NCBI GenBank assembly: GCA_963737065.1
Contig: CAVTRC010000001.1
Coordinates: 1,184,001-1,248,000, forward strand
DNA length: 64,000 bases
Direction of reading: 5' to 3'
Origin: Candidatus Eremiobacteria bacterium
Lineage (GTDB): Bacteria > Vulcanimicrobiota > Vulcanimicrobiia > Vulcanimicrobiales > Vulcanimicrobiaceae
Shown: positions 46,786 to 62,740 of the stretch, piece by piece
Layout of the letters: each line of letters opens with the position of its first letter
Numbering within the stretch: position 1 is the first letter of the stretch
Position numbers and translations under genes: made by a program
Notes under the pieces: model-generated
What the model saw: the letters and a program-made list of their open reading frames with translations, nothing else
Databases searched by the model: none
What the model was told of the DNA's origin: nothing

Positions 46786-47603
46786 TCGCGCCGCCGACGC
46801 TTGCAGGTGTTTGGTCAGCGACCGTTACGCCGGTCGATGCGTCGTTCGAACCCGATGCGGCGCGTGCCGCGGCCTTTTATCAAGAACTGCTCGCCAACGG
46901 CATCGACGGGCTGAACGTTCTCGGAACCAACGGCGAAGCGATGTCGCTCAGCACGCGTCAGCGCATCGCATTCATGCGTGGAATCGTTGAGGCCGGGATT
47001 CCGAAACCCCAAACGATGTTCGGCACGGGCGCCTGCGCGCTCGATGATGCGGTGGAACTCAATCGCGCCGCGGCGGACCTCGGAGTAGCAGCCGCGCTGA
47101 TTATTCCGCCGTTCTACTATCGCGACACGAGCAACGACGGTATCGTGCGCTTCTTCGACGCACTCTTCACGCGCGCGAGCCCGCCGCCGGTTCTCCTGTA
47201 TAATTTCCCGCGCATGAGCGGTATCACGTTCACCGCGTCGCTCGTCGACCGCTTGTTGAATGAATTCCCGGGCAAGATCGTCGGCATGAAGGACAGCTCG
47301 AACGACGCGACGTTACAGCGTGAGCTACTGCTGCGCCATCCCGAATTGCGCGTATTCACCGGTTCGGAAGAGACGCTTGCCGACGTGTTGAGCTTCGGCG
47401 GCGCGGGTTGCATTTCGGGAAGCGTTGCACTATGGCCGCGCCTCGCCGGCGATTTCTACCGCACGCGCGATGCGAAATTCGGCAAAGAGCTTGCGGAAGC
47501 ACGCCGCTCCGTCGACGGCGGCTCGTTGATCGCAACGGTGCGCGAACGCATCGCCCGCGCGCGCGCCGACGACAACTGGCGCCGCGCCGTTCCGCCGCTT
47601 TAG
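46782..47603 (+). CDS. Dihydrodipicolinate synthase family lyase
   Basis: LGTNGE, PPFYY, LYNFP and GMKDSS motifs. Confidence 0.9.
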   Translation: MIAPPTLAGVWSATVTPVDASFEPDAARAAAFYQELLANGIDGLNVLGTNGEAMSLSTRQRIAFMRGIVEAGIPKPQTMFGTGACALDDAVELNRAAADLGVAAALIIPPFYYRDTSNDGIVRFFDALFTRASPPPVLLYNFPRMSGITFTASLVDRLLNEFPGKIVGMKDSSNDATLQRELLLRHPELRVFTGSEETLADVLSFGGAGCISGSVALWPRLAGDFYRTRDAKFGKELAEARRSVDGGSLIATVRERIARARADDNWRRAVPPL

Positions 47604-49591
47604 ACCGTGCGCGCTTTCCGCCCGATCCAACGATACAACGCAAACGGGACCAAGACGAATGCGATGACGGCGAGCGGCGTGGCGAGCGCAAAGTTTGCGG
47701 CAAGTAGCGCGAACGGTTGCGACGGATCCGCGACGGAGATCGCACCGCGCTGGGCGGCAACGATGATTCCGGCATAGAGCACGCCCCAGATGCTTTCACC
47801 AACGATCAACCCCGACGCTACGAGCACGCCCAGGCGGCGCGCTGCGTCGGCATTGTTTTTGTTGCGAGTCCAATTGTTGTAGATCGCGCCGAAGAGCGCG
47901 CCGACGACAACGGGCGCCGTCGCCTGCGGCGGAAGATAAATGCCCAAGCCCACGGCGAGCGGCGGAAAGCGAAAGCGTCCCGACATGCGGCCGAGCTCAT
48001 CGATCACGATGACGGCGATGCCGATCAACACACCGATGCCGATGAGGTTCCACGGGGTCGTCGCGCCGATCACGCCTTTCGCGAGCGTCGAAATGAGCAC
48101 CGCTTGCGGCGCGGCCAATCCGTTTCCACCGAATCCGTATGCCTTGTTCAAGACGTCGAGTATGGGCGGGATAATGATCGCACCGAACAACACGCCGACG
48201 ATCAACGCGACTTGTTGCCGCCACGGCGTCGCACCGACCAGCTGACCCGTCTTCAGATCCTGAAGATTGTCATTTGAGATCGTGGCGACGTTGATCAAAA
48301 TCGTCGTGATGAACAACGCGTACGCTACCAACGCGGGGGTCGTGACGGGGTCGGCTTTTGCGACGAGCAGCAGCAAGAGCGCCGCACCGATGACCGAGAG
48401 AATCGCCATGCCGGAAACGGGCGAGTTCGACGATCCGATCAGTCCGGCCATATACCCCGTCGCCGCCGCGACGAACAATCCGACGATTACGACGTAGACC
48501 ATGCCGACGACGATCAGCGGCACAGCCATCGATTGCAACGGTGTGCCCGAGAGAAACACGTACAACAGGATCCCGAGCGGAACAAAGCACGCGAGCGCGA
48601 TCAAAAGAACGACGTTGAAGGGAAGATCGTGCTCGGTGATGTCGAGCGTCGCGCCCGCCTTGCGTGCTCGCGATGCGGCGACCGAGGACATAACGCCTTT
48701 CCACACCGGCGCCGCCAACCGCAGCAACGTCCAAATGCCGGCAATGCCGATCGTGCCGGCGCCGATAAAACGCACGTCGTGCGCGCGGATCGCATTTGCG
48801 ATATCGGCGATCGCGCCCGCCTGCGGATGCAACGCCGAAAACAGTGGAATCAAAATACCCCACGCGATAAAGAGGCCGCCAAAGATCGCGCTACCGACGC
48901 TCAGCCCGATGAGGTGACCGACCCCCACGAGCGCGAGCGAGGTCGAAAATCCCAAACCGGTAATCGATGGACCGACCTTCGCGAAGCCGTCGAACTCGCT
49001 CGCAAAGAGTCGAATCGCCGTACCGACCTGCACTGCGGCTGACGCGATCGAACTCACGATGAGCGCGATCAGCCCCAAGCGATTCTCGGCTGCGGCTTCG
49101 TCCTTTTGTTTACCGGCGCCGACGTGTAAAACTTCCGCCGCAGCGACCCCTTCCGGATACGGAAGATCCGAACCGGTCACGAGCGCGCGGCGCAACGGCA
49201 CGCTGTACATCACGCCGAGAATTCCGCCGAACGCACAGACCGCGAAAGACTGCCAGAACGGAAAGTGCGTCCACCAACTCACCATGACGAGTCCGGGCAA
49301 GACGAAGATGACCGAGGACAGCGTGCCCGCGGCCGAAGCAACGGTCTGCACGATGTTGTTCTCCCAGATCGTCGCGCTGCGGAATCCGCGTAAGACCGCC
49401 ATAGAAATCACCGCCGCCGGAATCGACGACGCGAACGTCAACCCGACCTTGAGGCCGAGATAAACGTTAGCAGCGGTAAAGACGAGCGTAATCAGGCCAC
49501 CGAGAAGCAGCCCGCGAATCGTTAACTCGAGTGCGCCCGCGGGACGGGAAACCGGCTCGATGACACCAGCCGGGCTTTCCGGTTGTGTGAG
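47600..49591 (-). CDS. OPT family oligopeptide transporter
   Basis: NVYLGLKVGLTFASSIPAAV, YPEGVAAA, SNSPVSG and QDLKTGQLVGATP motifs. Start approximate. Confidence 0.93.
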   Translation of the reverse strand, partial: LTQPESPAGVIEPVSRPAGALELTIRGLLLGGLITLVFTAANVYLGLKVGLTFASSIPAAVISMAVLRGFRSATIWENNIVQTVASAAGTLSSVIFVLPGLVMVSWWTHFPFWQSFAVCAFGGILGVMYSVPLRRALVTGSDLPYPEGVAAAEVLHVGAGKQKDEAAAENRLGLIALIVSSIASAAVQVGTAIRLFASEFDGFAKVGPSITGLGFSTSLALVGVGHLIGLSVGSAIFGGLFIAWGILIPLFSALHPQAGAIADIANAIRAHDVRFIGAGTIGIAGIWTLLRLAAPVWKGVMSSVAASRARKAGATLDITEHDLPFNVVLLIALACFVPLGILLYVFLSGTPLQSMAVPLIVVGMVYVVIVGLFVAAATGYMAGLIGSSNSPVSGMAILSVIGAALLLLLVAKADPVTTPALVAYALFITTILINVATISNDNLQDLKTGQLVGATPWRQQVALIVGVLFGAIIIPPILDVLNKAYGFGGNGLAAPQAVLISTLAKGVIGATTPWNLIGIGVLIGIAVIVIDELGRMSGRFRFPPLAVGLGIYLPPQATAPVVVGALFGAIYNNWTRNKNNADAARRLGVLVASGLIVGESIWGVLYAGIIVAAQRGAISVADPSQPFALLAANFALATPLAVIAFVLVPFALYRWIGRKARTV

Positions 49592-49639
49592 TTGCACCCG
49601 CCTTCGATTGTCGGCGCTGCGCAAGGACCCTTTCGTCGA

Positions 49640-49996
49640 TCAGGCAGCGCGTTGGACGAAGACGGCGATCCGGCGTCCGTCGTGCCCGTGCAGGGGCGCG
49701 ACGGTGACGTGAAGATCGCTCACTGCGGCAGCAGCGGGACTTGCGGTCCGGGGGTTACGCCACGCCGCAGTGAGAGCGCGCACGACGCGATCGATCGCTC
49801 CAGGCAGCGCGTCCACGCCGGAGCTCGCGTCGTACAACGATGCTAAGGGTTCTTCAGCGCTGGAGGGCCCGGCCATGACGACCCGATACGCCTCGTCGAG
49901 AATGAAGCAGTAGGGAATGGCGCCGGTAAAGCGCGGACGATTCGGGATTGCATCGTAGGTTGCTTGGGTGATTGCGACCACGGACGAGTCCTCCAT
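49640..49996 (-). CDS. Hypothetical protein divergent from the LuxR regulator
   Basis: 118-aa ORF with typical codon usage and a PAS-like alternating pattern (weak). Confidence 0.6.
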   Translation of the reverse strand: MEDSSVVAITQATYDAIPNRPRFTGAIPYCFILDEAYRVVMAGPSSAEEPLASLYDASSGVDALPGAIDRVVRALTAAWRNPRTASPAAAAVSDLHVTVAPLHGHDGRRIAVFVQRAA

Positions 49997-50070
49997 GACC
50001 CTATGGTACGAGAGGCGGCACGCGAAAGAATCCGGGGAAACACCTGGTTTTCGGACGAATTACGACGGCC

Positions 50071-52635
50071 ATGTCCGCCCTGATCGGCCGCGAACGGGAA
50101 ATTGCGACCGCTCTTGGCGCGCTCAAGATCGCCCAATCGACGCCGGTGGCGCGCTGCATCGCCATCGAAGGGCCGCCCGGAATTGGAAAGACCGCGCTGT
50201 TGACCACGATCCGCGAGCAATCGGGCTCGTGGCTTCAATTCGGCACGTCAGCGCATCGGATCCAGCAGACGCTGGCCTTCGGAGTCGTTCGGCGGCTCCT
50301 CGCGGCGCTGTCGGAAGCGCTCGGAGATGAATCCGCCCGCTATACGACCGGACTTGGTGAACTTGACGGCAGTGCAACCGATGGCGGCACGACGCTTTTA
50401 CGTCTGCTCGAGGGCGTAACACTAGATCACCCGGTGCTCATCGCCTTAGATGACGCGCAATGGATCGACGAAGAAAGTGCGACCGCGCTCAACGCGATTT
50501 TGCTCAGTCTCGCTGATCGTCCGCTCGCGCTCCTGACGACCGAACGGATCGATCCGTCGGAACCGCTTTCGCTGCTTGACGCAGCAGTACGCATCAGCCT
50601 CGGTCCCCTCGATCGTCGCGCGGCTATGGGTGCTGCGCGCGCTGAATTTCCGGAGGCACCCGTAGACGTCATCGATGCAATCGTGGCGCACTCCGGCGGA
50701 CATCCGATAGATCTCGTCACCCTCGCTCAATCGGCGCGCGATCGCGCAGCCCGCACTGGGAGTGACGTTGCCGAAAGTTTGAGATCGGTCACGGTTCGCA
50801 ACATCCAATCGCTTCCGGCGCAGCTGCGGGAATTTCTTCAAATCATGTCGCTGCTGAACGAGCCGATCGACTATAACTTGTTGCGCCGAATCTGGCTCGA
50901 CGAAAACCATCTCGTCAATCTCATCACCGCGAGTTCAGAACGCTTTTTAGTACAGGAAAGCACGCACTTGCGGTTCGCACATACCATGCTCGCCGATGCC
51001 GTACTCGAGACGATTCCTGTTACCATTCCAATGCGCCGGCGCATCATCGCTGCACTGCGGAGCGTCTCGAATCCCACGCTGGAAGACCGCTTGCAGATAG
51101 CGGAGCAAGCGCAAGCGTGCGGCGATCGCGACCTTGCGATTACGACCTTAGCCGCGCTTGCGAGCGAAGCGATCGAACGTGGGCAGGTGCGCTTGACGAT
51201 CAGCGTCTCCGAGCAGATGCTGAAAATCGGTGAGCCGCCTGACGACCGGTTCGTACCGTTCTATTCCGGCTACGGCCGCGCGCTACAGTTCATCGATCGC
51301 CTCGATCGCGCGAACGAAGTATTTCAACACGCGTTAGATGAAGCGACGCGGCGGAAATTGCCCGGCGTCGCTGCGCTTGCGGCGCAACTTGTCCTCGCGC
51401 AATGGTTCAACGACGAAAACGAGCGCGCCGTAAAGAACTACGAACGATTTTCAAACCAATTCACCGCGCCGTTCGATCGCGCTGCGCTTCACGCGGCGGG
51501 AATGTGGTTCGCGGCCTGCGACGCCGATATCGCGCGCTTCGAGAAAATCGACGCGGAGTTGACAGCCCTCGACGTTCCACTTCCGCCTGAACTAGCGTTG
51601 CGCCGTCACATCGTTCGCGCGTACATGATGATGCGCGCGGGCAATTTCGTCGAGTCGCGCGCCGCTATATCGCGCGTGGAAGACACCGCGTCGAGCGTTC
51701 CGGACGCGTTGCGGAACTTGGGGCAATTTGCGCGCACGTTCGTCGAACTCTGCTTGCTCGGCGTGCACGAGGCGAATGTCGGCGCGCTGCGAACGCGGCT
51801 GCGCGACGATGAAAACGGTTCGTGGCTCGACTACCTCTATGCGTGGACCGAATTGTTCGCGGGCCGGTATCACGATGCACTGGTCGTCGTCGAAAACGCT
51901 TTACAGCGCTATAGCGATCCCATTCACCGGCGCCGGATGCTGACTCTCGCTGCTGCGCTGAGCGTCATGCAAGACGAACCGAGTTCGTTTTTGTCCTCGA
52001 TCGAGAGCGACGTATCGCGCTTACTCACAGGTGAGCGCGGTGTGTGGTTCATGCCGCTCGCATCGTGGGCGTCACTCCTGCCGCGGACGTCCGAATCGCG
52101 CGCTCGGGTGCTCTCACGGATCGTTCTCACACATCTCTCGAAGCCCAGCGATCCACTCGTTATTACGCTCGCGACGCCAATTGCACTTAGCGCGCGTAAA
52201 CGCGGCGACACGGAGCTGCTCGAAGCACTCGCTCAACCCGAAGGGCTGTGGGATGATAAACGACCGCTCATCGCCGCCGAACTCGCGCTCGCGCGTGCGC
52301 TCGCGCGCGAGGGACTGGGGCGCGCTCCCGCACGCGATGTGGACGACGCATGCGACGAGTGCCGCAATCTTGGGCTGTCGGCAATCGTCGAGCTCGTTTC
52401 GCGCTCGGCGCAAAAGACAAGCGCGCTGAAAGCGGAGGCGAAATCTCCGCTTACGGCTCGCGAACGGCAGATCGCAAGGCTCGTTGCGCAAGGTATGTCG
52501 AACCGCGAGATCGCCGAGCAGCTTGTGTTGAGCGAACGCACCGTTGAAGGCCACATCGCCAACATTTTCAGCAAACTCAACCTCTCGTCGCGCACCCAAA
52601 TTGCGGCTTGGGTGTTGCGCGCTACGACTGCATAG
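50071..52635 (+). CDS. Large ATP-binding LuxR-family (LAL/MalT-like) regulator
   Basis: LIGRERE, Walker A GPPGIGKT, Walker B LDDAQWID and a C-terminal LTARERQIARLVAQGMSNREIA HTH. Confidence 0.93.
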   Translation: MSALIGREREIATALGALKIAQSTPVARCIAIEGPPGIGKTALLTTIREQSGSWLQFGTSAHRIQQTLAFGVVRRLLAALSEALGDESARYTTGLGELDGSATDGGTTLLRLLEGVTLDHPVLIALDDAQWIDEESATALNAILLSLADRPLALLTTERIDPSEPLSLLDAAVRISLGPLDRRAAMGAARAEFPEAPVDVIDAIVAHSGGHPIDLVTLAQSARDRAARTGSDVAESLRSVTVRNIQSLPAQLREFLQIMSLLNEPIDYNLLRRIWLDENHLVNLITASSERFLVQESTHLRFAHTMLADAVLETIPVTIPMRRRIIAALRSVSNPTLEDRLQIAEQAQACGDRDLAITTLAALASEAIERGQVRLTISVSEQMLKIGEPPDDRFVPFYSGYGRALQFIDRLDRANEVFQHALDEATRRKLPGVAALAAQLVLAQWFNDENERAVKNYERFSNQFTAPFDRAALHAAGMWFAACDADIARFEKIDAELTALDVPLPPELALRRHIVRAYMMMRAGNFVESRAAISRVEDTASSVPDALRNLGQFARTFVELCLLGVHEANVGALRTRLRDDENGSWLDYLYAWTELFAGRYHDALVVVENALQRYSDPIHRRRMLTLAAALSVMQDEPSSFLSSIESDVSRLLTGERGVWFMPLASWASLLPRTSESRARVLSRIVLTHLSKPSDPLVITLATPIALSARKRGDTELLEALAQPEGLWDDKRPLIAAELALARALAREGLGRAPARDVDDACDECRNLGLSAIVELVSRSAQKTSALKAEAKSPLTARERQIARLVAQGMSNREIAEQLVLSERTVEGHIANIFSKLNLSSRTQIAAWVLRATTA

Positions 52636-52900
52636 TGTATGCGAACCCGACGGCGCGCGGCGCGTTCGCCTGTTCGCCAGTCAGTTTCGCATGCTCGTCC
52701 TGCAGATTCTCTTCCGCGTATTGACGCATCTGTTCCATGTCGGCGTCGCTCGGCGGCTGCGAGAGGCCAAGCGTTGTTTGAATCAATTCTTTGAGTGCAG
52801 CAGAATCGTTTTGTGCGGCTTGCCACTTCGCGAATGTACCGGGATCGCGGAGTGCGTGCATAAATCCGGCCGCGATTGCGGCGTGTTGGACCGTGGCCAT
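52622..52900 (-). CDS. Candidate RiPP precursor or substrate peptide (92 aa)
   Basis: GAGGA SD 4 nt before the ATG. Helical acidic leader with an ALRDPxxF motif and C-terminal PRAVGFAYTMQS. Last gene of the ycaO-methyltransferase string. Confidence 0.65.
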   Translation of the reverse strand: MATVQHAAIAAGFMHALRDPGTFAKWQAAQNDSAALKELIQTTLGLSQPPSDADMEQMRQYAEENLQDEHAKLTGEQANAPRAVGFAYTMQS

Positions 52901-52964
52901 AGTGTCCTCATAAGTGAAGGGGTGTTCGGGTCTCTGACACCTATCGGGGAATCGGTTCGGCGAG

Positions 52965-53819
52965 TTAGCGCGCTACGATGATTCGCATCGATTCGCGATA
53001 GAGAATCGTGCGGTCACCGGCCCACTCCGTGAGCCGTTCATATACGCGCATGCGCGCATCCTCTGGCAACGTACCAACGTAGTACAAAAGACCCATGCGG
53101 CGCCGGAGAATGTCGATTCCGACAGCACGTTGGACCGTAAAATCATCGATCCGAACGTCGGAGAAGCCGCAGTCATGGAGCATGCTTTCCAACGTTTGCG
53201 TGGCGAAGATACGCGGGTCGCCCGGGTTGACCGGCGCGTAATCCGGATAGATTTCACGCACCCACCCGCGTATGGACTGCAACAACTGCATTGTGATTTC
53301 CGATGGGAGAGGCGGACGCGGGACGACGAAAGCAAAAACTCCCCGTTGTCGCAACACGCGGCGCACTTGCTGCAACGCCGCGTTTACATCACGGATCAGC
53401 ATCACGACGAGATGAGACGCCACTGCATCGAACGCATCGTTCGTGAAAGGCATTGACTCGGCCGCAGCAACAACGAGATCGTCAACGTTCGCAGCTGGAA
53501 GTCGCCGCTGCGCGCGCGCGATCTCTCCCGGCGAAAGATCGATACCGCTCACGCGAATCGCCCGATGCCGCGCGATCAGTTGCTCGAGCAGTACGCCATC
53601 GCCGCAACCGATATCCAACACGCGACCCCGGGAGACATCCACGGCGTCGACGAGGCGACCGTAGCTCGTCCGTCCGCGTTCGTCAACGAAACCTTCGAGG
53701 ACGCGCTCAGTGACGGACCGGCGCTCATCGTGAAACGCGCGGTGGTACTCGTCGAAATACTCAGGACGCGGAGCTTTGCCGGAAAGCACCGCCCGCATAA
53801 CGTCGCTCTCGTTGCTCAT
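52965..53819 (-). CDS. Class I SAM-dependent methyltransferase
   Basis: VLDIGCGDG, GIDLS, MPFTNDAFDAV and RRVLRQRG motifs. Start uncertain (53819 or 53849). Confidence 0.9.
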   Translation of the reverse strand: MSNESDVMRAVLSGKAPRPEYFDEYHRAFHDERRSVTERVLEGFVDERGRTSYGRLVDAVDVSRGRVLDIGCGDGVLLEQLIARHRAIRVSGIDLSPGEIARAQRRLPAANVDDLVVAAAESMPFTNDAFDAVASHLVVMLIRDVNAALQQVRRVLRQRGVFAFVVPRPPLPSEITMQLLQSIRGWVREIYPDYAPVNPGDPRIFATQTLESMLHDCGFSDVRIDDFTVQRAVGIDILRRRMGLLYYVGTLPEDARMRVYERLTEWAGDRTILYRESMRIIVAR

Positions 53820-53934
53820 AGAAACGCAAACGGAAGATGCCTCATGCATCTCCCATTCACTGTTCGCGGGATATAGCCTTAGCGCGCGGCCGTCAAACGC
53901 GGGTGACACGGATACGGGTAAGGACGTTGCTGCT

Positions 53935-55887
53935 TTAGCGCAGCGCGAACGGATTAAGGAGCGCACGTGCGCGCGGTCCCAAGTGCCCCGTGAAGATCAC
54001 GTGTTCTAGGCGCGGAACGATCGTTCGCACAACGCTGATCGGCACGTCGGGTGGCGCCAGGTCCACCGCGACCGCGCTCGTGATGCCGTATTGTGAAAGC
54101 GACCGTAACGTCGCGCGAAGATCGTCCGCAAGATCGTCCGTCGTGCGGTCGGGGATCTGATCGAGCGCTTTGCGCGGCGTCGGCATGTCGAAGTACCAGG
54201 CGTCCCTCGGCAACGACTCGAGTCTTCGCGCATGCGAACCCGAGATTCCCGCGTCTTCGCCAACCCGCAAAATATCTTCCCGTGCAGCCTGAATGTCGAC
54301 GACACGGCTTTGCACGCACTCCGTAAGCGCGCGCGTGAGCGCATGTGCCGGCGATAGCGCGCAACCTAACCCGATATGCGCCATCGGCGGCGTCACGCCC
54401 GGCTCGCTTACGGTTGCAAGCACGGTCAAAGGCAATGGCCCTTCTTCAAGGGCGAGCGCGCGGACCGTCAGGCCGGCGTCATGAATATTTTGAACGAGTC
54501 CGTCGATCGAGGCAATGCCGGTGGGAAACGTGATCTCCGGTGCCAACGGCAAATCCTTCGCCGCCTCGCCCAAGAAGAAACGCGGCACAATCGAACATTT
54601 GACGTGGAACATGCACCAGATGTGGCGTTCGATCAGCTCGCACAGCGCGTGATAGATCGCTTCGGTTAGGTTATTCCCTGAAGCCAGTCCGTTGGTTGAC
54701 GTGATATCGAAAAGACGGTCGCCGAACCATGGACACTGCACCATCGCAACCGGGACGGGAATCGCGTCGCCCGAGATCAGTTCGGTTCCGAGCACGCAAT
54801 CGACGACGAGCTCGCGGGCATCCGAGCGTAAACCGGTCGCTTCGAGATCCATACGCTCGCCGACGATCCGCAAGGACTCGCGAAAGACCGGAAGGCGCAC
54901 GACCGATCCGATTTGACGTTCCGTCGCTTCCATCACCGCACTGGCAATGGCGGCATCAGAGGTCACGCCCTTACCGTTGTAGACGCCGAGTAAATCGACG
55001 GAATGCGGCACGAGCGCTGAGTACGTGGGAATGCCGGTCCGATCCAGATACGTGGTGTCGGCGACGCGCGTAATTCCATAACATTCGCGCAAGCGTGGCA
55101 ATACCGCGAGCGTCGCTTCAAACGGTACGGCGCGATCGTACGTGCCCGGCGCTTTGGGAACCGATTGCGGGAGCACGATCGGCGAGGTATCGATGGAGTC
55201 ATGCTGTGCGATGGCGCGCACCGTTGGTGACGCGGCGTGCGATCGCGGCGCGGCGGCGGTGCGCTCGATAAAGCGCAACACTGTGCGCATCGCAAAACGC
55301 GCATCCCAACGCTTGAGATCGCCATGCGCCCGCGCGATGGAGATGAACGCTTCCCGTGCATGCAGCGGGACGCATTCATAAACGTCCTCCCACGTACGGT
55401 CCATATAGAAGATTCGTCGCGCCCGGTCAATGAGTACATCGTGTTCCGCCCGCGTCATCGCAGCGCAGCGATATAACAAACGCGCGACATGCCGGACATT
55501 GACCATCGGGACGGTAAGCGACTCAAATGTTTCGGGATGCGTGAGCAGCGCCACTTCATCGTCGCCGTCGATCTTCTCAGCAACGTACCAGTTCGCGATC
55601 GCACCAAGCGGCGTGAAGCCGTACGGCGCGCACTCGGCCGCACGCAATGCACCCATGCTCGACGCACCAAACATTCGCGCGTGAAGCGTCGCTGCGTAGC
55701 ATTCCTTGGGCGAAGGCGCAAGATCGTGATGAAAGACGCCGTCGATCAGAAGAACCGCGTCGTATTCTTTTGCGGCCGCAAAGACATCGTTGCGCGACGC
55801 GGGCGGCAGATAGACTAATTCGTCGCGTCCGATTCGATCGCACGGCGGTAACGATGGGCCGCAAAAAACCGCGACGCGTTTCTCCAC
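53935..55887 (-). CDS. TfuA-YcaO fusion protein (putative peptide backbone thioamidation enzyme)
   Basis: N-terminal TfuA: VFCGPSL, LPPASRND, LIDGVF, PKE, GASSMGALRAAEC, DDEVAL, VPMVNVR. C-terminal YcaO: GITRVADTTYLDRTGIP, GKG, SAVMEATER, STNGLASGN, ELIERH, RALTECVQSR, VVRTIVPRLE. One uninterrupted frame. Confidence 0.93.
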   Translation of the reverse strand: MEKRVAVFCGPSLPPCDRIGRDELVYLPPASRNDVFAAAKEYDAVLLIDGVFHHDLAPSPKECYAATLHARMFGASSMGALRAAECAPYGFTPLGAIANWYVAEKIDGDDEVALLTHPETFESLTVPMVNVRHVARLLYRCAAMTRAEHDVLIDRARRIFYMDRTWEDVYECVPLHAREAFISIARAHGDLKRWDARFAMRTVLRFIERTAAAPRSHAASPTVRAIAQHDSIDTSPIVLPQSVPKAPGTYDRAVPFEATLAVLPRLRECYGITRVADTTYLDRTGIPTYSALVPHSVDLLGVYNGKGVTSDAAIASAVMEATERQIGSVVRLPVFRESLRIVGERMDLEATGLRSDARELVVDCVLGTELISGDAIPVPVAMVQCPWFGDRLFDITSTNGLASGNNLTEAIYHALCELIERHIWCMFHVKCSIVPRFFLGEAAKDLPLAPEITFPTGIASIDGLVQNIHDAGLTVRALALEEGPLPLTVLATVSEPGVTPPMAHIGLGCALSPAHALTRALTECVQSRVVDIQAAREDILRVGEDAGISGSHARRLESLPRDAWYFDMPTPRKALDQIPDRTTDDLADDLRATLRSLSQYGITSAVAVDLAPPDVPISVVRTIVPRLEHVIFTGHLGPRARALLNPFALR

Positions 55888-55890
55888 TAT

Positions 55891-55929
55891 AAAAAGACCC
55901 CCACCGATGTCATCTACACCGGCGGAGGT
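55891..55929 (-). terminator. Intrinsic terminator after the 55960..56253 gene
   Basis: Minus strand ACCTCCGCCGGTGT-agatg-ACATCGGTGGGGGT followed by CTTTTT. Confidence 0.75.
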
Positions 55930-55959
55930 AAAGTGTAACGGCTACGCGGCACTACGGTT

Positions 55960-56253
55960 TTACGGTCGGGTTGTCGACATCGGTGACGGGGTTTTCATCG
56001 ACCCCGAACTCGTGCCGGTGCTCGGACTCGCCATCGCTCCGGGCGTCGCTTTGGGATTGGGCGAACCGCAGTTGCCGTTCGGAGTCATCGTGCCCGGCAT
56101 TTCGGAAGTGCTGCTGGTTTGAGCGCCCGAACTCGGGGAGGGACATGGAGAAGCCGTAGATCCTGAGGTCGTTTGAGCATTTGCCGTTACGCCGAGTGCG
56201 CCCGCAAGAACGAACGCGCCGGCGATAGCGGCGCTTCTAAGCCAATTCTTCAT
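55960..56253 (-). CDS. Small secreted Ser/Pro/Thr-rich protein
   Basis: Signal peptide MKNWLRSAAIAGAFVLAGALGVTANA followed by a low-complexity SPSP tail. Confidence 0.7.
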   Translation of the reverse strand: MKNWLRSAAIAGAFVLAGALGVTANAQTTSGSTASPCPSPSSGAQTSSTSEMPGTMTPNGNCGSPNPKATPGAMASPSTGTSSGSMKTPSPMSTTRP

Positions 56254-56319
56254 AGCGGGCCGGTACCCGCGCTTTGCGCCGCAGTAACGCAGCTGCGCCT
56301 CGCTCGGCGGCTATGCCGC

Positions 56320-56793
56320 TTACGCGCGATCTTCCCCGCCCGCGGATTCGTTCAAGACGCGTTCGATGGCAGCTTGGACGCGTTCGAATCCTTTGCCGCC
56401 TGCCTGAAAATGGCGTAGCTCATGCGCGCGATCGAACACGTAGAATGCGGGGACGAATTGATTTTCGAAACGATCGACGATCGTGTGCGCATTGTCGATC
56501 GCGACCGGCTGCGTCAGCTGCATGTGCTCGTTCGCATCTTTGGTCACCGCATCGACGTCGAGTTCGTCTTCGGATCGCGGCTGGTGCACCGCGACGAACG
56601 CAACGCCGCGATCGGCGAACGTGTCGCGCCACGCTGCGAATTGGCCGGCGGTGTCGTGGCACATAACGCAACTTTGCGACCAAAATGAAACGACGACCGG
56701 AAGTCCGCGCAGCTCTTCAGCTTTGGGCTCGCCGTTGACCCACGCGCTAACGCCCTCCAATGAAGGCAGAGTGCTTCGCATCCGCAGTGTCAT
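56320..56793 (-). CDS. TlpA-like redoxin
   Basis: FWSQSCVMC, VHQPR and FENQFVPAFYVFD motifs. Confidence 0.88.
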   Translation of the reverse strand: MTLRMRSTLPSLEGVSAWVNGEPKAEELRGLPVVVSFWSQSCVMCHDTAGQFAAWRDTFADRGVAFVAVHQPRSEDELDVDAVTKDANEHMQLTQPVAIDNAHTIVDRFENQFVPAFYVFDRAHELRHFQAGGKGFERVQAAIERVLNESAGGEDRA

Positions 56794-57348
56794 TTATGCC
56801 TTTTGGAGCAGCGCTTTGCCGGGCTTCCATTCGGCCGGGCACAGACCGCCGGTTTGCAGCGCCTGGAGCACCCGAAGCGTTTCATCGACGCTGCGGCCGA
56901 CGTTGTCGTCCGTCACGACGGCATATTTCAAATCGCCTTCCGGATCGATGATGAAGAGCCCGCGCTGCGCGACGCCGGTTTTTTCATCGAGCACGCCGTA
57001 CGCGCGCGCGGTTTCTTTCGTGAAGTCCGAAAGGAGCGGGAATTTCGTCCCCGCAATGCCGTTCTTTTCACGCGGCGTATTGAGCCACGCCCAGTGTGAG
57101 AACACGGAGTCGACGGACGCGCCGAGGATCTCGCAGTCGAATTCCTTGAACTCGTCGCAGCGATCCGATAACGCGGTAATTTCCGTCGGGCAGACGAACG
57201 TGAAGTCGAGCGGATAGAAGAAAAAGACCAACCATTTGCCGCGATAGTCGGTGAGCTTGACCTCTTTGCCGAGGTCTCTTGCTCCGGTCGCGTCTTTCGT
57301 GCTCGCGAGGTTGAAATCGGGTGCCGGTTTACCGACTTGCGCCAACAT
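56794..57348 (-). CDS. ahpC: 2-Cys peroxiredoxin (AhpC/TSA)
   Basis: FYPLDFTFVCPTE, RGLFIIDP, VGRSVDETLR and CPAEW motifs. Confidence 0.95.
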   Translation of the reverse strand: MLAQVGKPAPDFNLASTKDATGARDLGKEVKLTDYRGKWLVFFFYPLDFTFVCPTEITALSDRCDEFKEFDCEILGASVDSVFSHWAWLNTPREKNGIAGTKFPLLSDFTKETARAYGVLDEKTGVAQRGLFIIDPEGDLKYAVVTDDNVGRSVDETLRVLQALQTGGLCPAEWKPGKALLQKA

Positions 57349-57483
57349 TGAGATTCGTTCCACTTTCTACATCGGGAAGTAACGAGCTGCGGCCGCATGA
57401 ACCGGCCCGCACTCGAAGTTTGCGAATCCGAATGTACGCAAATCCGGGCGTCCGCGAAAATGACTTTCAGCGCAGACCCGCAA

Positions 57484-57507
57484 TAATGTCGCACGTTATC
57501 GACATAA
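57484..57507. other. Palindromic recombinase-type site TAATGTCGC-N7-CGACATAA (copy 1)
   Basis: An inverted second copy is at 58139-58162. Confidence 0.55.
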
Positions 57508-57561
57508 CGTAGTACGCCTCAATGCCATACACTGAGCATGGGGGCGGTTTATTCTTAGGGC

Positions 57562-57954
57562 ATGGAACCGCCAAAAACTCTCCTCGAAGCTGTTCGCATG
57601 TTCTCCGATCCGAACGAAGCGCATCGGTACTTCGCCTCAATCCGCTGGGCTCACGCCGTGGCCTGCCCCCGGATCGGGTACGGATCAGCCGATGTTCGGG
57701 AGATTCGCGGAAGGCGGCCTCGATGGTTCTGCCGCGACTGTAAGCGGCAGCTCACAGCCAAGGTCGGCACGATTTTTCAGGATAGCTCCATCGGCTTCGA
57801 TAAGTGGCTCCGGGCCGTATGGCTCCTTACCGCCTGCCGCAACGGCGTGTCGTCCTATGAAGTCCACCGTGATCTTGGTGTGACCCAGAAGACAGCTGGT
57901 TTATGCTTCACCGTATCCGTCACGCGCTTAGTAGTAAGACGTTCGAAAAGCTAA
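57562..57954 (+). pseudogene. IS1595-family transposase, N-terminal remnant
   Basis: Zn ribbon RW...CP...CRDCKRQ, GTIFQDS and GVSSYEVHRDLGVTQKTA, then a frameshift. No DDE domain. Confidence 0.85.
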
Positions 57955-58138
57955 ACCGACTGTAGACACTCGCGGATGGAGGCCGGTTGATACACCGCCC
58001 GCTGGCATCGTCCCATCCTGGGACCTTCCGCCGCCCAGCGCGACACCGTGAACGAACGCGGTTCGCGCGACTCTACGATCAGCCTACCGCTCCCATTTCC
58101 GGCTTTCTAAGGTCGAGCGGCGCGAGGCGTCTAGTATA

Positions 58139-58162
58139 TTATGTCGCGTACTGGCGACATTA
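58139..58162. other. Palindromic recombinase-type site (copy 2, inverted)
   Basis: TTATGTCG-cgtactg-GCGACATTA. Confidence 0.55.
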
Positions 58163-58238
58163 CTGATTTGACGCAAACGGGGCGACCAGACCTTAAGCTA
58201 GCTCACGGTTGCTGTTTCGTGGTATTGCTCCTTTGATC

Positions 58239-58267
58239 TTGACCATAGCTTGGTACCATGGTACCAT
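58239..58267 (+). promoter_or_regulatory. Sigma70-type promoter with an overlapping palindromic operator for the TA pair
   Basis: TTGACC (58239-44), 17-bp spacer, TACCAT (58262-67). Perfect 16-bp palindrome TGGTACCATGGTACCA at 58251-58266. Confidence 0.7.
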
Positions 58268-58324
58268 ATCAGCATGGGCGACCGGGGGGTCACCTATCCT
58301 CAGTCCTCTAAACGGGAGACAACC

Positions 58325-58543
58325 ATGGCACTGAAACAGATCAATATTCGAGTCGATGAGGAAACGGCGGAGCAACTCAAGCTTCGCGCCACCATTGAAA
58401 AGCGGTCCGTCAACGAGATCGTTGGGGAATCTCTGCGCGAATATTCGAAGCGCCACCCCGTTTCGCGCAAAGACATGCTCGCTATGGTGCGGGCCATTGC
58501 GCGTGAGGATGAATCGTTATTGGAAGAGTTGAGAAAAGGCTAG
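58325..58543 (+). CDS. Ribbon-helix-helix (Arc-like) antitoxin
   Basis: KQINIRVDEE...LKLRA..EKRSVNEIV motif, GGGAGA SD, directly upstream of the Doc-like gene. Confidence 0.8.
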   Translation: MALKQINIRVDEETAEQLKLRATIEKRSVNEIVGESLREYSKRHPVSRKDMLAMVRAIAREDESLLEELRKG

Positions 58544-58544
58544 A

Positions 58545-58943
58545 TTGCAATATCTCACTGAAGACGACGTTCTTGCGATTTACAGAGAGGTCATCGGAGA
58601 ACCCGCATTGCGGTATCCCAGTGGCCTTTCTTCTGCAGTAGGACGCCCGCAGCAGTCGGCATTTGGTGAAGACGCATATCCGACGATTCAGCTAAAGGCT
58701 GCAGCCCTTATGCAGTCGCTTGCCGAGAATCAACCTTTCGTTGACGGCAATAAGCGCATTGCATGGATTTGCGGAAAGCTATTCTTGCAGATTCACGGAT
58801 ACACGATGCATGCGACGGATAAGGAGGGAGCAGAACTCTTTTTAGAACGCATCGCAAATGGCATGACAATTGAGGACTTGTCGGAGTGGATTAGTCGCCA
58901 TATTTCCGTGCTTATTACAGACGAAAACGCAGGACTGACTTAA
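58545..58943 (+). CDS. Doc/Fic family toxin with a variant active-site motif
   Basis: LSSAVGRPQQSAFGEDAYP..KAAAL and NQPFVDGNKR motifs. Confidence 0.88.
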   Translation: MQYLTEDDVLAIYREVIGEPALRYPSGLSSAVGRPQQSAFGEDAYPTIQLKAAALMQSLAENQPFVDGNKRIAWICGKLFLQIHGYTMHATDKEGAELFLERIANGMTIEDLSEWISRHISVLITDENAGLT

Positions 58944-59800
58944 AGTCTTTTTTTGTGCCATCCAGTGGTCATATCCGTTCGCTACAATTGAACCATGAAC
59001 GAGCCGACCACCCTCCTCGAAGCCGTTCGCATCTTTGCAGACCCGCAAGTCGCTCATGACTACTTCCTCGGCCTCCGCTTTCCAAACGGTATCGCCTGCC
59101 CTCGGCACGGATGCGGTTCGGCGGACGTAGCAAAGATTTCAAACCGTAACGCGTGGCGCTGCCGCGACTGCAATCGCCAATTTATGGCCAAAGTCGGCAC
59201 GATCTTTGAGGACTTTGAGGACAGTCCTATCGGCTTCGACAAGTGGCCCGCGGCTATGTGGATGTTGTCCTCATGCCGTAACGGTGTATCATCCTGCCAT
59301 CGCCCGGGCGATCGGCGTCTGTCAGAAGACGGCGTGGTTCATGCTGCACCGCTTGCGTCACGCTATGAAAACCAAGACCTTCGAGCGTCTTTCGGGCGAG
59401 ATTGAAGTAGACGAGACGTTCATCGGCCCGCGTGGTCGCTCGATGACTCGTCGCCATGTTCTCCCGCCATCGAAGAAAGGCGGACGCGGTCCGACGTTCG
59501 GAAAGACGACCGTCATGGGATTCCGCGAACGCGGCGGAGATGTTCGCGCGTTTGTCGTTAAAGACAATCGCCGGAACACGCTGCTTCCGAAAGTTTTCGA
59601 GAACGTAATGCCCGGCGCGACCGTCTACACCGATGTGCTCGGCTCTTATCACGGCCTACGCGAAGCGTTCGTTCACCAAGTCATCAATCATGCCGAGTCC
59701 TATGTTGACGGTCGCATTCATACGAACAGCATTGAAAACTTCTGGAGCGTGCTGTTGACGCCGGCTGAAAATTGACCCACTTTGCTATGGGATCGCCGGT

Positions 59801-61616
<1,816 letters not shown>

Positions 61617-61666
61617 CGCGAACTTACGTTCGCGTCAGATCAGGCGGAACGGCTTAGTCAACTCTG

Positions 61667-62740
61667 TTAGGCGGCGACTTCAATACTATTCTGACTATTG
61701 CGCGCAAGTCGGTCTTGCATCGGTTGCAACCGATAAAACACAACCGTTGCCAGCTGCCGTTTGTGAGAACGCATCGCAGCTCGATGCGTCTTGCCCTCAG
61801 CTCGCTTACGCGCATAATAGAGTTGGCCCGGATGATTGCGCGTGCGGTTTTGGACCAACGCAATAACATGGAGTAATCGATTGAGCTGACGATCACCACC
61901 GGTGTTGACACGGACGCTCGCGTTGCGACCGCTCGAACACGGAACGGGCGCCGCCCCGGCGCGCATCGCGAAGCTCGCGGCATTGCGATACATGCAAAGA
62001 TTGCCGGCATGTCCAATGATCCCGGCAGCAACGACAATGGAAACGCCTCGAAGCTCCAGCAATTCGGGCGCAAGGCGCTTAACGAAAGGGCGCAGTTGGC
62101 GTTCCAGCTGATTCACTGCAGCATTGAGCCGGCGGATTTCCGAGATCGCCTCGTCGACCTCATCAGCAAGCGCATCACCGGTATAGCTCTTACCGCGATG
62201 ACCCGTTAGAAGATCTGCTGCATTCTGCAATGCAATTTCGGTGGTCATGTTCGAGGGCAGCGGTCCAATCGCCAGCCGCAATGCGGCATCCCGCAGCCGA
62301 TTTACAGCCTCCGTCCGCTGTCGCACAAGTCGATCGCGGCGATCATAACGTAACCGGACTGCTTCCTGTTCATCCAGACGTTCGCAACGCCGCAAGCGAT
62401 CGGATTCGCGCAGAACTGCTTCGGCAATCGCTCGAGCGTCGAGTGGATCGGATTTTCCTCTTCGGCTTGCGTGTTTGCGGTGACGTTTAGTGAACGAACC
62501 TGGAACCTCGTATACGACGGCGTTGCTTTTCAGCAGAGCATCGGCGAAGCCACGTCCGAACGAACCACTTCCCTCAAGACCCCATTCAACGGTGCCAAAC
62601 GACCGTGCTCTTTCGATCGCAGTCGCATACCCTGCGGCGTTCGTTGCAATGGTGATCTCCGAGAGCGCTTTCCCAACTCCATCAACGAATACGATGGTGT
62701 GAGAATCCTTGTGACAATCGACGCCCGCAACGACGCGCAT
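61667..62740 (-). CDS. IS110 family transposase/recombinase (DEDD)
   Basis: GVDCHK, LEGSG, KSDPLDA, APVPCSSG and GDRQLNRLLH motifs, with an AAGGAG SD. Confidence 0.95.
   Translation of the reverse strand: MRVVAGVDCHKDSHTIVFVDGVGKALSEITIATNAAGYATAIERARSFGTVEWGLEGSGSFGRGFADALLKSNAVVYEVPGSFTKRHRKHASRRGKSDPLDARAIAEAVLRESDRLRRCERLDEQEAVRLRYDRRDRLVRQRTEAVNRLRDAALRLAIGPLPSNMTTEIALQNAADLLTGHRGKSYTGDALADEVDEAISEIRRLNAAVNQLERQLRPFVKRLAPELLELRGVSIVVAAGIIGHAGNLCMYRNAASFAMRAGAAPVPCSSGRNASVRVNTGGDRQLNRLLHVIALVQNRTRNHPGQLYYARKRAEGKTHRAAMRSHKRQLATVVFYRLQPMQDRLARNSQNSIEVAA

Follow-up and report, generated by a model that had tools for sequence, protein, structure and literature searches.

The DNA studied here, a stretch of 64,000 nucleotides (the window), comes from a soil-type member of Eremiobacterota, a phylum that has received little study. 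Its preliminary description reported a 650-residue polypeptide in which TfuA and YcaO are joined, and read it as a self-contained thioamide synthetase. Two questions arise from this locus: is the fusion a genuine gene and, if so, on which substrate would its product act?

A single frame encodes TfuA and YcaO

The gene lies on the reverse strand at positions 53935..55887. It starts with GTG and encodes 650 residues without any internal stop codon, and a second frame check showed that the open frame around it spans 668 stop-free residues. As had been claimed, this one chain carries both domains, and each exceeds its Pfam cut-off: the TfuA model (PF07812, all 119 positions, residues 49-165) scores 96.7 bits for a cut-off of 30, which the N-terminal part thus passes, and the YcaO model (PF02624, all 325 positions, residues 304-628) scores 171.9 bits for a cut-off of 25.7. 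These are the sole TfuA and the sole YcaO match in the genome. The best solved relatives are the thioamide-forming YcaO MJ1094 (6pe3, E 3.6e-27) and the TfuA protein 6xp8 (E 1.6e-24). All sequence motifs quoted previously were recovered: SPKE (residues 59-62), GASSMGALRA (74-83), TAAAPRSHAASPT (210-222), SAVMEATER (316-324), ELIERH (417-422), ECVQSR (523-528) and, at the very end, NPFALR (645-650).

Because tfuA and ycaO are split in related genera, with the stop codon of one overlapping the start codon of the other, a single indel error could mimic a fusion. An origin of the gene in faulty sequencing or assembly, or in the recent decay of a pair not made as one protein, is nevertheless extremely improbable, as (i) both domains occur in a single protein in 78 other 90%-identity clusters, drawn from many assemblies (55-81% identity to the fusion), (ii) a single match or open frame spans both halves in 21 of the 52 genomes of the phylum with a TfuA/YcaO match, that of the window included, and (iii) the single frame is kept in all 14 fetched fused loci, which represent four genera, despite 61-81% identity and unequal linker lengths. 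The fusion is therefore real.

The two domains are separated by an Ala/Pro/Ser-rich linker of about 25 residues (residues ~210-235; 55183..55260, reverse strand), which the alignment shows to vary in both sequence and length. The stretch aligned to residues 196-250 comprises 31-55 residues among orthologues; the linker is shorter by about 23 residues in 13 of 38 Eremiobacterota-type rows, all of them in frame, and can shrink to almost nothing.

Conserved residues of the two domains

The TfuA domain (residues 1-209; 55261..55887, reverse strand) was delimited by the alignment of residues 4-209 with residues 2-216 of 6xp8, by the match of NF033432 to residues 5-203 and by invariant columns. In TfuA, a Ser-Lys pair hydrolyses ThiS-COSH and the sulfide is passed to YcaO (PMC13185837, citing Liu et al. 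2021). The lysine singled out previously is present, as K61 of SPKE, but it is not invariant: the position is Lys in 41 of 57 aligned fused proteins and Arg in 6xp8. By contrast, S77 and K192 (in DLKRWDA) are found in 57 of 57 and are both kept in 6xp8. Since K61 varies while S77 and K192 do not, the alignment makes S77/K192 more likely than K61 to provide the catalytic pair.

The YcaO domain (residues ~236-650; 53935..55182, reverse strand) was assigned from the full-length Pfam match, the match to MJ1094 (6pe3) and invariant residues; the TIGR00702 model also matches (137.3 bits, cut-off 75.65). E320, E323, E417, E420 and E523, which we take to be the ATP/Mg-binding residues, are conserved in all 57 fused proteins, and R421 and R528 are invariant as well. 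The last 30 residues, ending in ...LGPRARALLNPFALR, lack a PxPxP motif, in agreement with the preliminary description; this tail is linked to azoline-forming YcaOs (bioRxiv 10.1101/2025.07.11.664356). The SagD-type model TIGR03604 reaches 85.2 bits, below its cut-off of 219.25, and neither an E1-like or Ocin-ThiF partner nor a dehydrogenase was seen in the cluster. On these three grounds, assignment to the azoline-forming (TOMM/SagD-type) enzymes was rejected. Assignment as an equivalog of the enzymes that thioamidate the McrA glycine was rejected too: TIGR03266 (methan_mark_1, 174.2 bits) and NF033432 (ThioGly_TfuA_rel, 129.9 bits) score best, yet stay well below their cut-offs of 365 and 235.2.

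A conserved gene cluster surrounds the fusion

The fusion belongs to a conserved cluster that also comprises a LuxR regulator, a 92-residue ORF and a SAM methyltransferase. These three additional genes, missed by the preliminary description, are the most informative part of the locus. The class I SAM-dependent methyltransferase (52965..53816, reverse strand; Methyltransf_11, 74.9 bits) is encoded within an ORF whose longest version starts at 53966; we place its start at 53816, as conservation begins near residue 51 of that version. All 14 fused loci contain it, whereas the six split loci gave just one weak match, and its best PDB match is LahSB (6uak; 42.9 bits, E 4.5e-10, residues 64-221). 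The large LuxR-family regulator (50071..52635, forward strand; AAA_16 and GerE HTH domains in Pfam) is convergent with the 92-residue ORF and overlaps the end of it by 14 nt; 19 of the 20 fetched loci have a homologue next to the cluster. By tblastn, these 20 loci gave 18 matches for the 92-residue ORF, 19 for LuxR and 15 for the methyltransferase.

An OPT-family oligopeptide transporter (47600..49624, reverse strand; PF03169, 322 bits) adjoins the cluster in 12 of the 20 loci, which come from three genera, with 73-91% identity over the main match; its membership in the cluster is uncertain. In five relatives without the cluster, the OPT and peroxiredoxin flanking genes are both present only in G011, about 0.74 Mb apart. 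The conserved core contains neither a protease nor a dedicated exporter, and no C39-peptidase or ABC exporter is encoded nearby. Rfam gave no match in 49500-58500 (E up to 0.1), no tRNA gene was found in 40000-64000, and promoter-like sites (2, shuffle mean 1.4) and terminator-like sites (4, shuffle mean 4.3) were not above shuffles. PADLOC returned nothing for the fusion or the 92-residue ORF; its matches of the methyltransferase to mad2 (57.9 bits) and of the LuxR HTH to a CARF-HTH model are, in our reading, generic domain matches.

A precursor-like peptide accompanies the enzyme

The 92-residue ORF (52622..52900, reverse strand), recognised by tblastn, HMM and family alignment, has a GAGGA sequence 5 nt upstream of its ATG. 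It consists of a conserved leader of about 83 residues, V84-G85, a variable F-A-Y-T tetrapeptide and an M-Q-S end. The same pattern runs through the family: a leader, V-G, four hypervariable residues and M-Q(Q)S. V-G and M-Q are conserved, in contrast to the intervening four positions, whose entropy is 2.3-3.1 bits. Most relatives have cores rich in His and Met, such as HHVGFMAMMQQ; the core of the window, F-A-Y-T-M-Q-S, is without the His residues common among them. Tandem copies occur in three genomes (three in G119, two each in G207 and G118), and between these paralogues only V-G...M-Q is strictly kept, with leaders at 22-39% identity. The dN/dS ratio was 0.05-0.15 in five of six pairs, the sixth being saturated; such purifying selection along all 92 residues would be expected of a long leader and equally of a small folded protein.

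The family seems to be new. None of its 103 clusters has a precomputed Pfam domain, and our Pfam search gave no convincing match. The Nif11 model PF07862 matched 5 of 84 members, all below the cut-off (best E 0.0089). NCBIfam gave no match to a leader-peptide model and no other convincing match, only three chance-level matches to single members, and the ESM Atlas returned no usable match.

The distribution of the ORF follows that of the enzyme. A TfuA/YcaO match is present in 52 of 301 genomes of the phylum, a tally that takes in one unpublished genome (G247), and in 44 of 206 in the family. The 92-residue ORF was detected in 37 of the 301, all of them among the 52, and in none of the 249 genomes without such a match. 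As related genomes are not independent, this co-occurrence partly reflects shared descent. With the HMM the ORF was found in 20 of 20 fetched loci, and in most rows it adjoins ycaO or lies within about 1.5 kb of it (exceptions: G143, G055 and G262). TfuA and YcaO thus stand beside a short ORF whose leader is conserved and whose core varies, which is the layout of a thioamidated RiPP cluster. This arrangement suggests that the 92-residue peptide is probably the substrate of the fusion.

Sulfur would be supplied in trans

TfuA acts on the ThiS thiocarboxylate (PMC13185837). In the genome studied here, ThiS (thiO-thiS-thiG), MoaD-MoaE and the only ThiF/MoeB-type E1 are encoded on the same contig, some 0.5-0.95 Mb away. 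Given the distance of these genes, the fusion would depend on a sulfur relay in trans or on free sulfide, and the word self-contained does not apply to it.

The fusion probably arose within the lineage

Genome mining in Burkholderia thailandensis had already brought fused tfuA-ycaO genes to notice (Malit et al. 2021, PMC8120280). Among the best 150 representatives at 50% identity, 64 are fused, in either domain order; the fused query used in this search favours fused matches. The fusion is thus neither rare nor unreported, and the novelty implied earlier was not upheld. In split relatives, the tfuA/ycaO junction is an ATGA-type stop/start overlap. In a quick tree, as opposed to a careful maximum-likelihood search, the fused forms fall within a single set with SH-aLRT 99, made up of 15 fused rows and one stand-alone row, and the fusion of Eremiobacterota is placed with local split genes and away from fused representatives of other lineages. 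Because of this grouping, the fusion probably arose inside the lineage, independently of the fusions found elsewhere; its ancestor was probably a translationally coupled tfuA-ycaO gene pair.

What the cluster may produce

The comparisons above directly support the fusion, its domains and their invariant residues; they also show that the cluster is conserved and that the 92-residue ORF strictly co-occurs with the enzyme and lies adjacent to it. On this basis we consider it rather probable that the cluster is an uncharacterised, LuxR-regulated thioamide-peptide pathway, in which a functional single-chain synthetase acts on the adjacent 92-residue peptide. With ATP, the YcaO domain would O-phosphorylate a backbone amide near the C-terminus of the peptide, within V-G-x4-M-Q(Q)-S. 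A ThiS-type thiocarboxylate from another part of the cell would be hydrolysed by the tethered TfuA domain, through S77 and K192, and the released sulfide would reach the YcaO site to give one or more thioamides. The methyltransferase would then probably methylate the product, possibly on its C-terminal carboxylate. We infer this chemistry, together with the modification site, the sulfur donor, what the methyltransferase does and any removal of the leader. Counting against this reading are the core cluster devoid of protease and exporter, the constraint along the whole ORF, the failure to match known leader families and the missing His residues in the core of the window. As to the initial proposal of a thioamide synthetase, the thioamide-type relatives, the family-invariant residues and the missing azoline signatures speak for it; what falls away is self-containment and implied novelty.

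The enzyme might instead thioamidate another, unlinked protein, the 92-residue ORF being an accessory such as an adaptor, a chaperone or an immunity protein. YcaO acts in methanogens on McrA, a substrate encoded elsewhere (PMC5589413), and uL16 of E. coli is thioamidated by YcaO (PMC13063428); the constraint over the whole length of the ORF and a core cluster devoid of protease and exporter would also suit such a role. We nevertheless regard it as unlikely: the patchy distribution of TfuA/YcaO in the phylum and in the family disfavours a housekeeping target, and the hypervariable tetrapeptide between conserved anchors, the tandem paralogues that strictly keep these anchors only, the dedicated LuxR regulator and the scores of both halves well below the McrA-type equivalog cut-offs all argue against it. 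More improbable still is that the YcaO domain performs other chemistry (a Thr/Ser oxazoline, an amidine or C-terminal activation) with TfuA serving chiefly to provide structure or affinity. Many cores do have Thr or Ser near their end, as in FAYTMQS, and YcaOs are versatile, a daptide-linked YcaO having been proposed to act near the C-terminus (bioRxiv 10.1101/2025.07.11.664356). Against this stand the invariance of the TfuA Ser and Lys, the missing PxPxP, the SagD-type score (85 bits against 219) and a cluster without E1-like/Ocin-ThiF partner or dehydrogenase; moreover, the TfuA-associated YcaOs described in PMC5589413, PMC8120280, PMC13185837 and PMC13174530 install thioamides.

Within the thioamide-peptide reading, the product could belong to a new class of methyl-esterified thioamide peptides or mini-proteins, in its boldest form a copper-binding, chalkophore-like metallophore that the OPT transporter would re-import. 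This idea, suggested by the His/Met-rich cores of most relatives and by the OPT gene flanking the cluster in three genera, is a long shot. Among the genomes examined, the V-G-x4-M-Q(Q)-S peptide was found only in Eremiobacterota-type ones.

Thioamidation by YcaO/TfuA is well established and catalogues already include fused forms, so that the fusion by itself adds little. What seems to be new is the cluster context and the peptide family; among titles and abstract openings of the literature on the phylum, none described its YcaO clusters. A natural single-chain TfuA-YcaO that comes with a candidate substrate and whose linker can shrink would make a convenient system of one gene and one peptide, for studying the handover of sulfide from TfuA to YcaO and for biocatalysis, a sulfur donor still being required. 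The unnamed peptide family, found only beside the enzyme, also offers a concrete lead towards natural products of a phylum that has scarcely been cultured.

Comparison with known systems

In the characterised systems, TfuA and YcaO are encoded by separate genes, as the preliminary description had stated: this is the case for StdG/StdH (PMC13174530) and for the ycaO-tfuA locus of M. acetivorans (PMC5589413), a pair responsible for McrA thioglycine in methanogens, and thioamitides and thiovarsolins are further products of YcaO/TfuA thioamidation (PMC6511847 / bioRxiv 10.1101/494286). Among 77 unfused named loci, the order ycaO then tfuA in separate frames occurs in methanogens, Rhizobium and Nostoc. 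The fusion shares with the characterised pairs the same two domains, the ATP/Mg glutamates and the TfuA Ser and Lys, and it would be expected to depend, like them, on a ThiS-type sulfur donor; unlike them, it is one polypeptide, TfuA followed by YcaO, and its substrate candidate belongs to a new family of 92-residue peptides.

Long-leader precursors include the Nif11- and nitrile-hydratase-like peptides, which the 92-residue family resembles in its conserved N-terminus of about 83 residues, its V-G pair, its short variable core and its tandem copies. It differs from Nif11 leaders in failing PF07862 and in the lack of a nearby C39-peptidase/ABC exporter. LahSB (6uak) O-methylates the C-terminal carboxyl group of lanthipeptide precursors (PMC11285071). 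Like LahSB, the cluster methyltransferase is a class I SAM enzyme in a RiPP-type cluster, and the core of the 92-residue ORF also lies at the extreme C-terminus; the similarity between the two, however, covers only the SAM-binding region (42.9 bits).

A further counterpart is that of Burkholderia thailandensis, where a TfuA-YcaO fusion, biochemically uncharacterised in the portions of the literature searched, lies in a putative thioamidated RiPP cluster (PMC8120280). By its published description, that cluster has two radical-SAM genes, whereas the genes accompanying the Eremiobacterota fusion encode a LuxR regulator, a class I methyltransferase and another precursor.

The tfuA-ycaO gene encodes one polypeptide with two intact domains

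The tfuA-ycaO gene (53935..55887, minus strand) is a single 650-aa ORF with a GTG start, within an open frame of 668 aa that has zero internal stops. As the preliminary description held, TfuA and YcaO share this frame: Pfam places PF07812 (TfuA) at residues 49-165 (96.7 bits, cut-off 30) and PF02624 (YcaO) at residues 304-628 (171.9 bits, cut-off 25.7), the latter over the full 325-position model. Every motif quoted in that description was found at its place, and no PxPxP tail, a motif associated with azoline-forming YcaOs in a preprint (bioRxiv 10.1101/2025.07.11.664356), is present within the last 30 residues. The lysine of the PKE motif (K61), to which attention had been drawn, is indeed present; however, this position is a lysine in only 41 of 57 fused proteins and an arginine in the TfuA structure 6xp8. 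The residues invariant in all 57 fused proteins, 19 of which are at 26-31% identity, are D49, G50, E62, G74, S77, G79, A80, R82, E85, G90, G95, R164, K192 and D195 in the TfuA half, and E320, E323, E417, E420, R421, E523, R528 and R536 in the YcaO half. A Ser-Lys pair of TfuA is reported to hydrolyse ThiS-COSH, the sulfide being passed to YcaO (PMC13185837). As S77 and K192 are both invariant, they are likely to constitute the catalytic Ser-Lys pair of the TfuA half.

We asked whether the fusion could be an assembly artefact. A word-indexed search of 5.8 billion proteins found both Pfam domains in 78 further 90%-identity clusters (543-668 aa, 55-81% identity); where a source is named, which is so for few of them, it is Candidatus Eremiobacteraeota, Aquilonibacter or a mine-drainage metagenome. 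Among 301 genomes of the phylum, including that of the window, a TfuA/YcaO match was found in 52 (a tally that includes the unpublished genome G247, counted here only), and in 44 of the 206 of the window's family; both halves were spanned by one match or open frame in 21 of the 52. When neighbourhoods were fetched and their frames read (n=20), the two genes were fused in one frame in all 14 loci of genera g1, g16, g21 and g37, the remaining six having separate genes (four tfuA->ycaO on the same strand, two on opposite strands). Conservation is lowest in the linker: orthologues hold 31-55 residues opposite residues 196-250, and ∼23 residues are missing in 13 of 38 Eremiobacterota-type rows. Despite this variable length, all orthologues stay in frame. 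Given the two-domain clusters and the one-frame orthologous loci, an assembly artefact can be considered excluded for practical purposes.

TfuA-YcaO fusions are a recurrent minority

When 1.84 billion 50%-identity representatives were searched exhaustively, 7234 proteins had E values up to 0.001. The best 150 of these 7234 were then sorted by their matches to each half of the window's fusion protein: 50 had the TfuA-YcaO order, 14 had the YcaO-TfuA order, 78 contained YcaO alone and 8 contained TfuA alone, in a ranking that favours fused proteins since the query is itself fused. Both domain orders were confirmed by Pfam in the representative proteins P0252 and P0265. Among the same best 150, 27 of the 50 TfuA-YcaO-order proteins (P0252, P0263 and 25 others) carry an insert of ∼230-410 aa between an N-terminal TfuA and a C-terminal YcaO domain, for a total of ∼860-930 aa; the P0252 insert has no Pfam assignment, and this type represents a third, unexplained fused architecture. 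Only 3 of the best 80 named species-representative loci (L055, L056 and L118) have a one-frame fusion, the other 77 being split or partial; in the named loci read off, ycaO lies upstream of tfuA in methanogens, Rhizobium and Nostoc. 'Fused tfuA-ycaO genes' are also described for Burkholderia thailandensis by Malit et al. 2021 (PMC8120280). The TfuA-YcaO fusion is thus a recurrent minority architecture. No biochemical study of a fused TfuA-YcaO was found in the literature searched.

In relatives with separate genes, tfuA runs into the start of ycaO, the overlap being ATGA in locus L049 and 8-11 nt long in L053 and L050, and a small indel at this overlap would join the two frames. In a quick maximum-likelihood tree of the YcaO domain, the 15 Eremiobacterota fused rows fall within one 16-row set (SH-aLRT 99), the sixteenth row being the stand-alone representative P0086. 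This set branches within a group of split relatives from the same family, apart from the fused representatives of other lineages. Because of this placement, we favour a single fusion within the family, separate in origin from the other fusions, without considering it proven.

The fused gene lies in a conserved cluster

The neighbourhood is a more interesting result than the fusion itself. Downstream of the fusion, the minus strand also carries a class I SAM methyltransferase gene (52965-53816; longest ORF to 53966) and a 92-aa small ORF (52622-52900) with a GAGGA ribosome-binding site ahead of its start; a LuxR-family regulator of 854 aa with AAA_16 and GerE domains converges on both. In tblastn searches of the 20 fetched loci, the small ORF was found in 18 and the LuxR regulator in 19, while the methyltransferase goes with the fused clade (14 of 14 fused loci, one weak match among the six split loci). 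A small-ORF HMM matched all 20 fetched loci and, of the 80 named ones, just 5, each of them Eremiobacterota-type by name or identity; in the latter collection it gave no match in loci labelled archaeal, proteobacterial, cyanobacterial, acidobacterial, myxobacterial or actinobacterial.

In 12 of 20 loci, the cluster has an OPT-family transporter gene (47600-49624 in the window) as its neighbour, 73-91% identical across the main match, and a peroxiredoxin/thioredoxin-like pair occupies the opposite flank in 10 of 20. Five relatives lacking the cluster were compared in search of an empty site; only G011 has both the OPT and the peroxiredoxin gene, ∼0.74 Mb apart. Both flanks are better conserved than the cluster genes and were treated as syntenic neighbours; a role of the OPT transporter as uptake partner is a possible, purely speculative reading. 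Seven loci of genus g21 (L038-L041, L044, L047 and L048) have a second, shorter LuxR/AAA_16 paralogue between the first regulator and the transporter, unlike the window, which has only one. Directly upstream of the fusion lies a 97-aa ORF (55960-56253, minus strand) whose product begins with a signal-peptide-like segment and is otherwise rich in Ser, Thr and Pro; it has no Pfam match, and its homologues are confined to three same-genus loci (L035-L037).

Just past the peroxiredoxin gene, positions 57562-62740 form an IS-rich stretch with a GC content of 52-57%, against ∼60% in the cluster. Two IS1595-type fragments occur here, one at 57562-57954 and a second, apparently frameshifted one that covers 58995-59405 and, in a different frame, 59206-59775. 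They are accompanied by an IS21 pair on the minus strand (IstB 59801-60595, rve 60588-61616) and by an IS110 transposase (61667-62740, minus strand). A Fic/Doc-family ORF (58545-58943, plus strand) is directly preceded by a 97-aa ORF without Pfam match (58250-58543, plus strand), a layout resembling that of a Doc-type toxin-antitoxin pair. On the other side of the cluster, and unrelated to it, a 1278-aa ORF (40955-44791, minus strand) has an N-terminal CarboxypepD_reg domain and no further Pfam match; its product is possibly a large outer-membrane or secreted protein.

The small ORF is a candidate substrate

The small-ORF family comprises 103 clusters of 80-107 aa, most named 'hypothetical protein' at source and none with a precomputed Pfam domain. 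Direct scans of 84 members gave only scattered sub-threshold matches (5 members to Nif11, 16 to MPAB_Lcp_cat), and NCBIfam yielded neither a leader-peptide match nor any other convincing one. The dN/dS values were 0.05-0.15 in five orthologue pairs, a sixth being saturated. In the alignment (A1), an N-terminal region of ∼83 aa is conserved, with F13, G45, L46, P50, D54, M58 and L66 invariant, followed by V84-G85, by four residues with a column entropy of 2.3-3.1 bits, two of them among the three most variable columns, and by a C-terminal M-Q-(Q)-S/N. Tandem paralogues retain V-G...M-Q while their leaders diverged: three copies directly follow ycaO in genome G119 (L049, 8367-9448), with leaders 22-39% identical to the window's copy, and two flank the methyltransferase gene, one on each side, in G207 (L035, 4301-5904).

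The small ORF was found in 37 of 301 genomes, all 37 within the 52 having TfuA/YcaO and none among the other 249, counts that are inflated by the relatedness of the genomes. In most rows it sits next to ycaO or no more than ∼1.5 kb away; the distance is a few kb in G143 and G055, and in G262 the small ORF is on another contig. The 15 genomes with TfuA/YcaO and without the small ORF include all those with the weakest YcaO match (30-47% identity). With its adjacency across genera, tandem duplication and leader/core pattern, the small ORF looks like a RiPP precursor and is a candidate substrate of the fusion.

The best solved relative of the methyltransferase (METHYLTRANSFERASE) is LahSB (6uak, 42.9 bits, E 4.5e-10), an enzyme that methylates lanthipeptide precursors at their C-terminal carboxylate (PMC11285071). 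Because the core sits at the very C-terminus of the peptide, it is a reasonable guess, and no more, that the methyltransferase would make a C-terminal methyl ester.

Sulfur supply and proposed pathway

In the window's genome (3.08 Mb, 2 contigs, 95% complete), TfuA and YcaO are each matched once, in the fusion gene. The two ThiS-fold genes of the genome lie far from the cluster, ThiS inside thiO-thiS-thiG and MoaD beside MoaE, and the single ThiF/MoeB-type E1 adjoins the MoaD locus. The protein had been proposed to be a self-contained thioamide synthetase, a view not borne out by these locations: as the ThiS-fold genes and the E1 are encoded elsewhere, the sulfur donor must come from these proteins in trans, unless free sulfide is used.

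These data establish that TfuA and YcaO domains, both intact, are joined in a single polypeptide, that the cluster around it is conserved, and that a lineage-specific peptide family is strictly linked to this cluster. From what is known of the two families, the YcaO domain would O-phosphorylate a backbone amide in an ATP-dependent manner, and the TfuA domain would free sulfide from a ThiS-type thiocarboxylate and deliver it across the tethered interface, so that a thioamide would form in the C-terminal core. Methylation of the peptide C-terminus and leader removal after V-G are guesses, as is any biological role of the product.

Comparison with known systems

The best NCBIfam models for the fusion are the McrA-glycine thioamidation pair, TIGR03266 (174.2 bits, equivalog cut-off 365) and NF033432 (129.9 bits, equivalog cut-off 235.2), both scores being far below threshold. 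The fusion passes the general YcaO kinase-domain model (137.3 versus 75.65) and fails the SagD-type azoline model (85.2 versus 219.25). It belongs to the TfuA and YcaO families, outside both the McrA equivalogs and the azoline-forming group. Its nearest solved structures are the MJ1094 YcaO (6pe3, E 3.6e-27), the thioamide-forming enzyme of Methanocaldococcus jannaschii, and the TfuA 6xp8 (E 1.6e-24). As an architecture, the fusion is one more member of a type already known. As a cluster, it brings a methyltransferase and a LAL-type regulator together with a new precursor family and a fusion of probably independent origin. A search for Eremiobacterota with YcaO and a broader one, both covering titles and abstract openings, found no published account of such an Eremiobacterota cluster. 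By analogy, the fusion would work as do the YcaO/TfuA pairs that install thioamides in methanogens and in actinomycete RiPPs.
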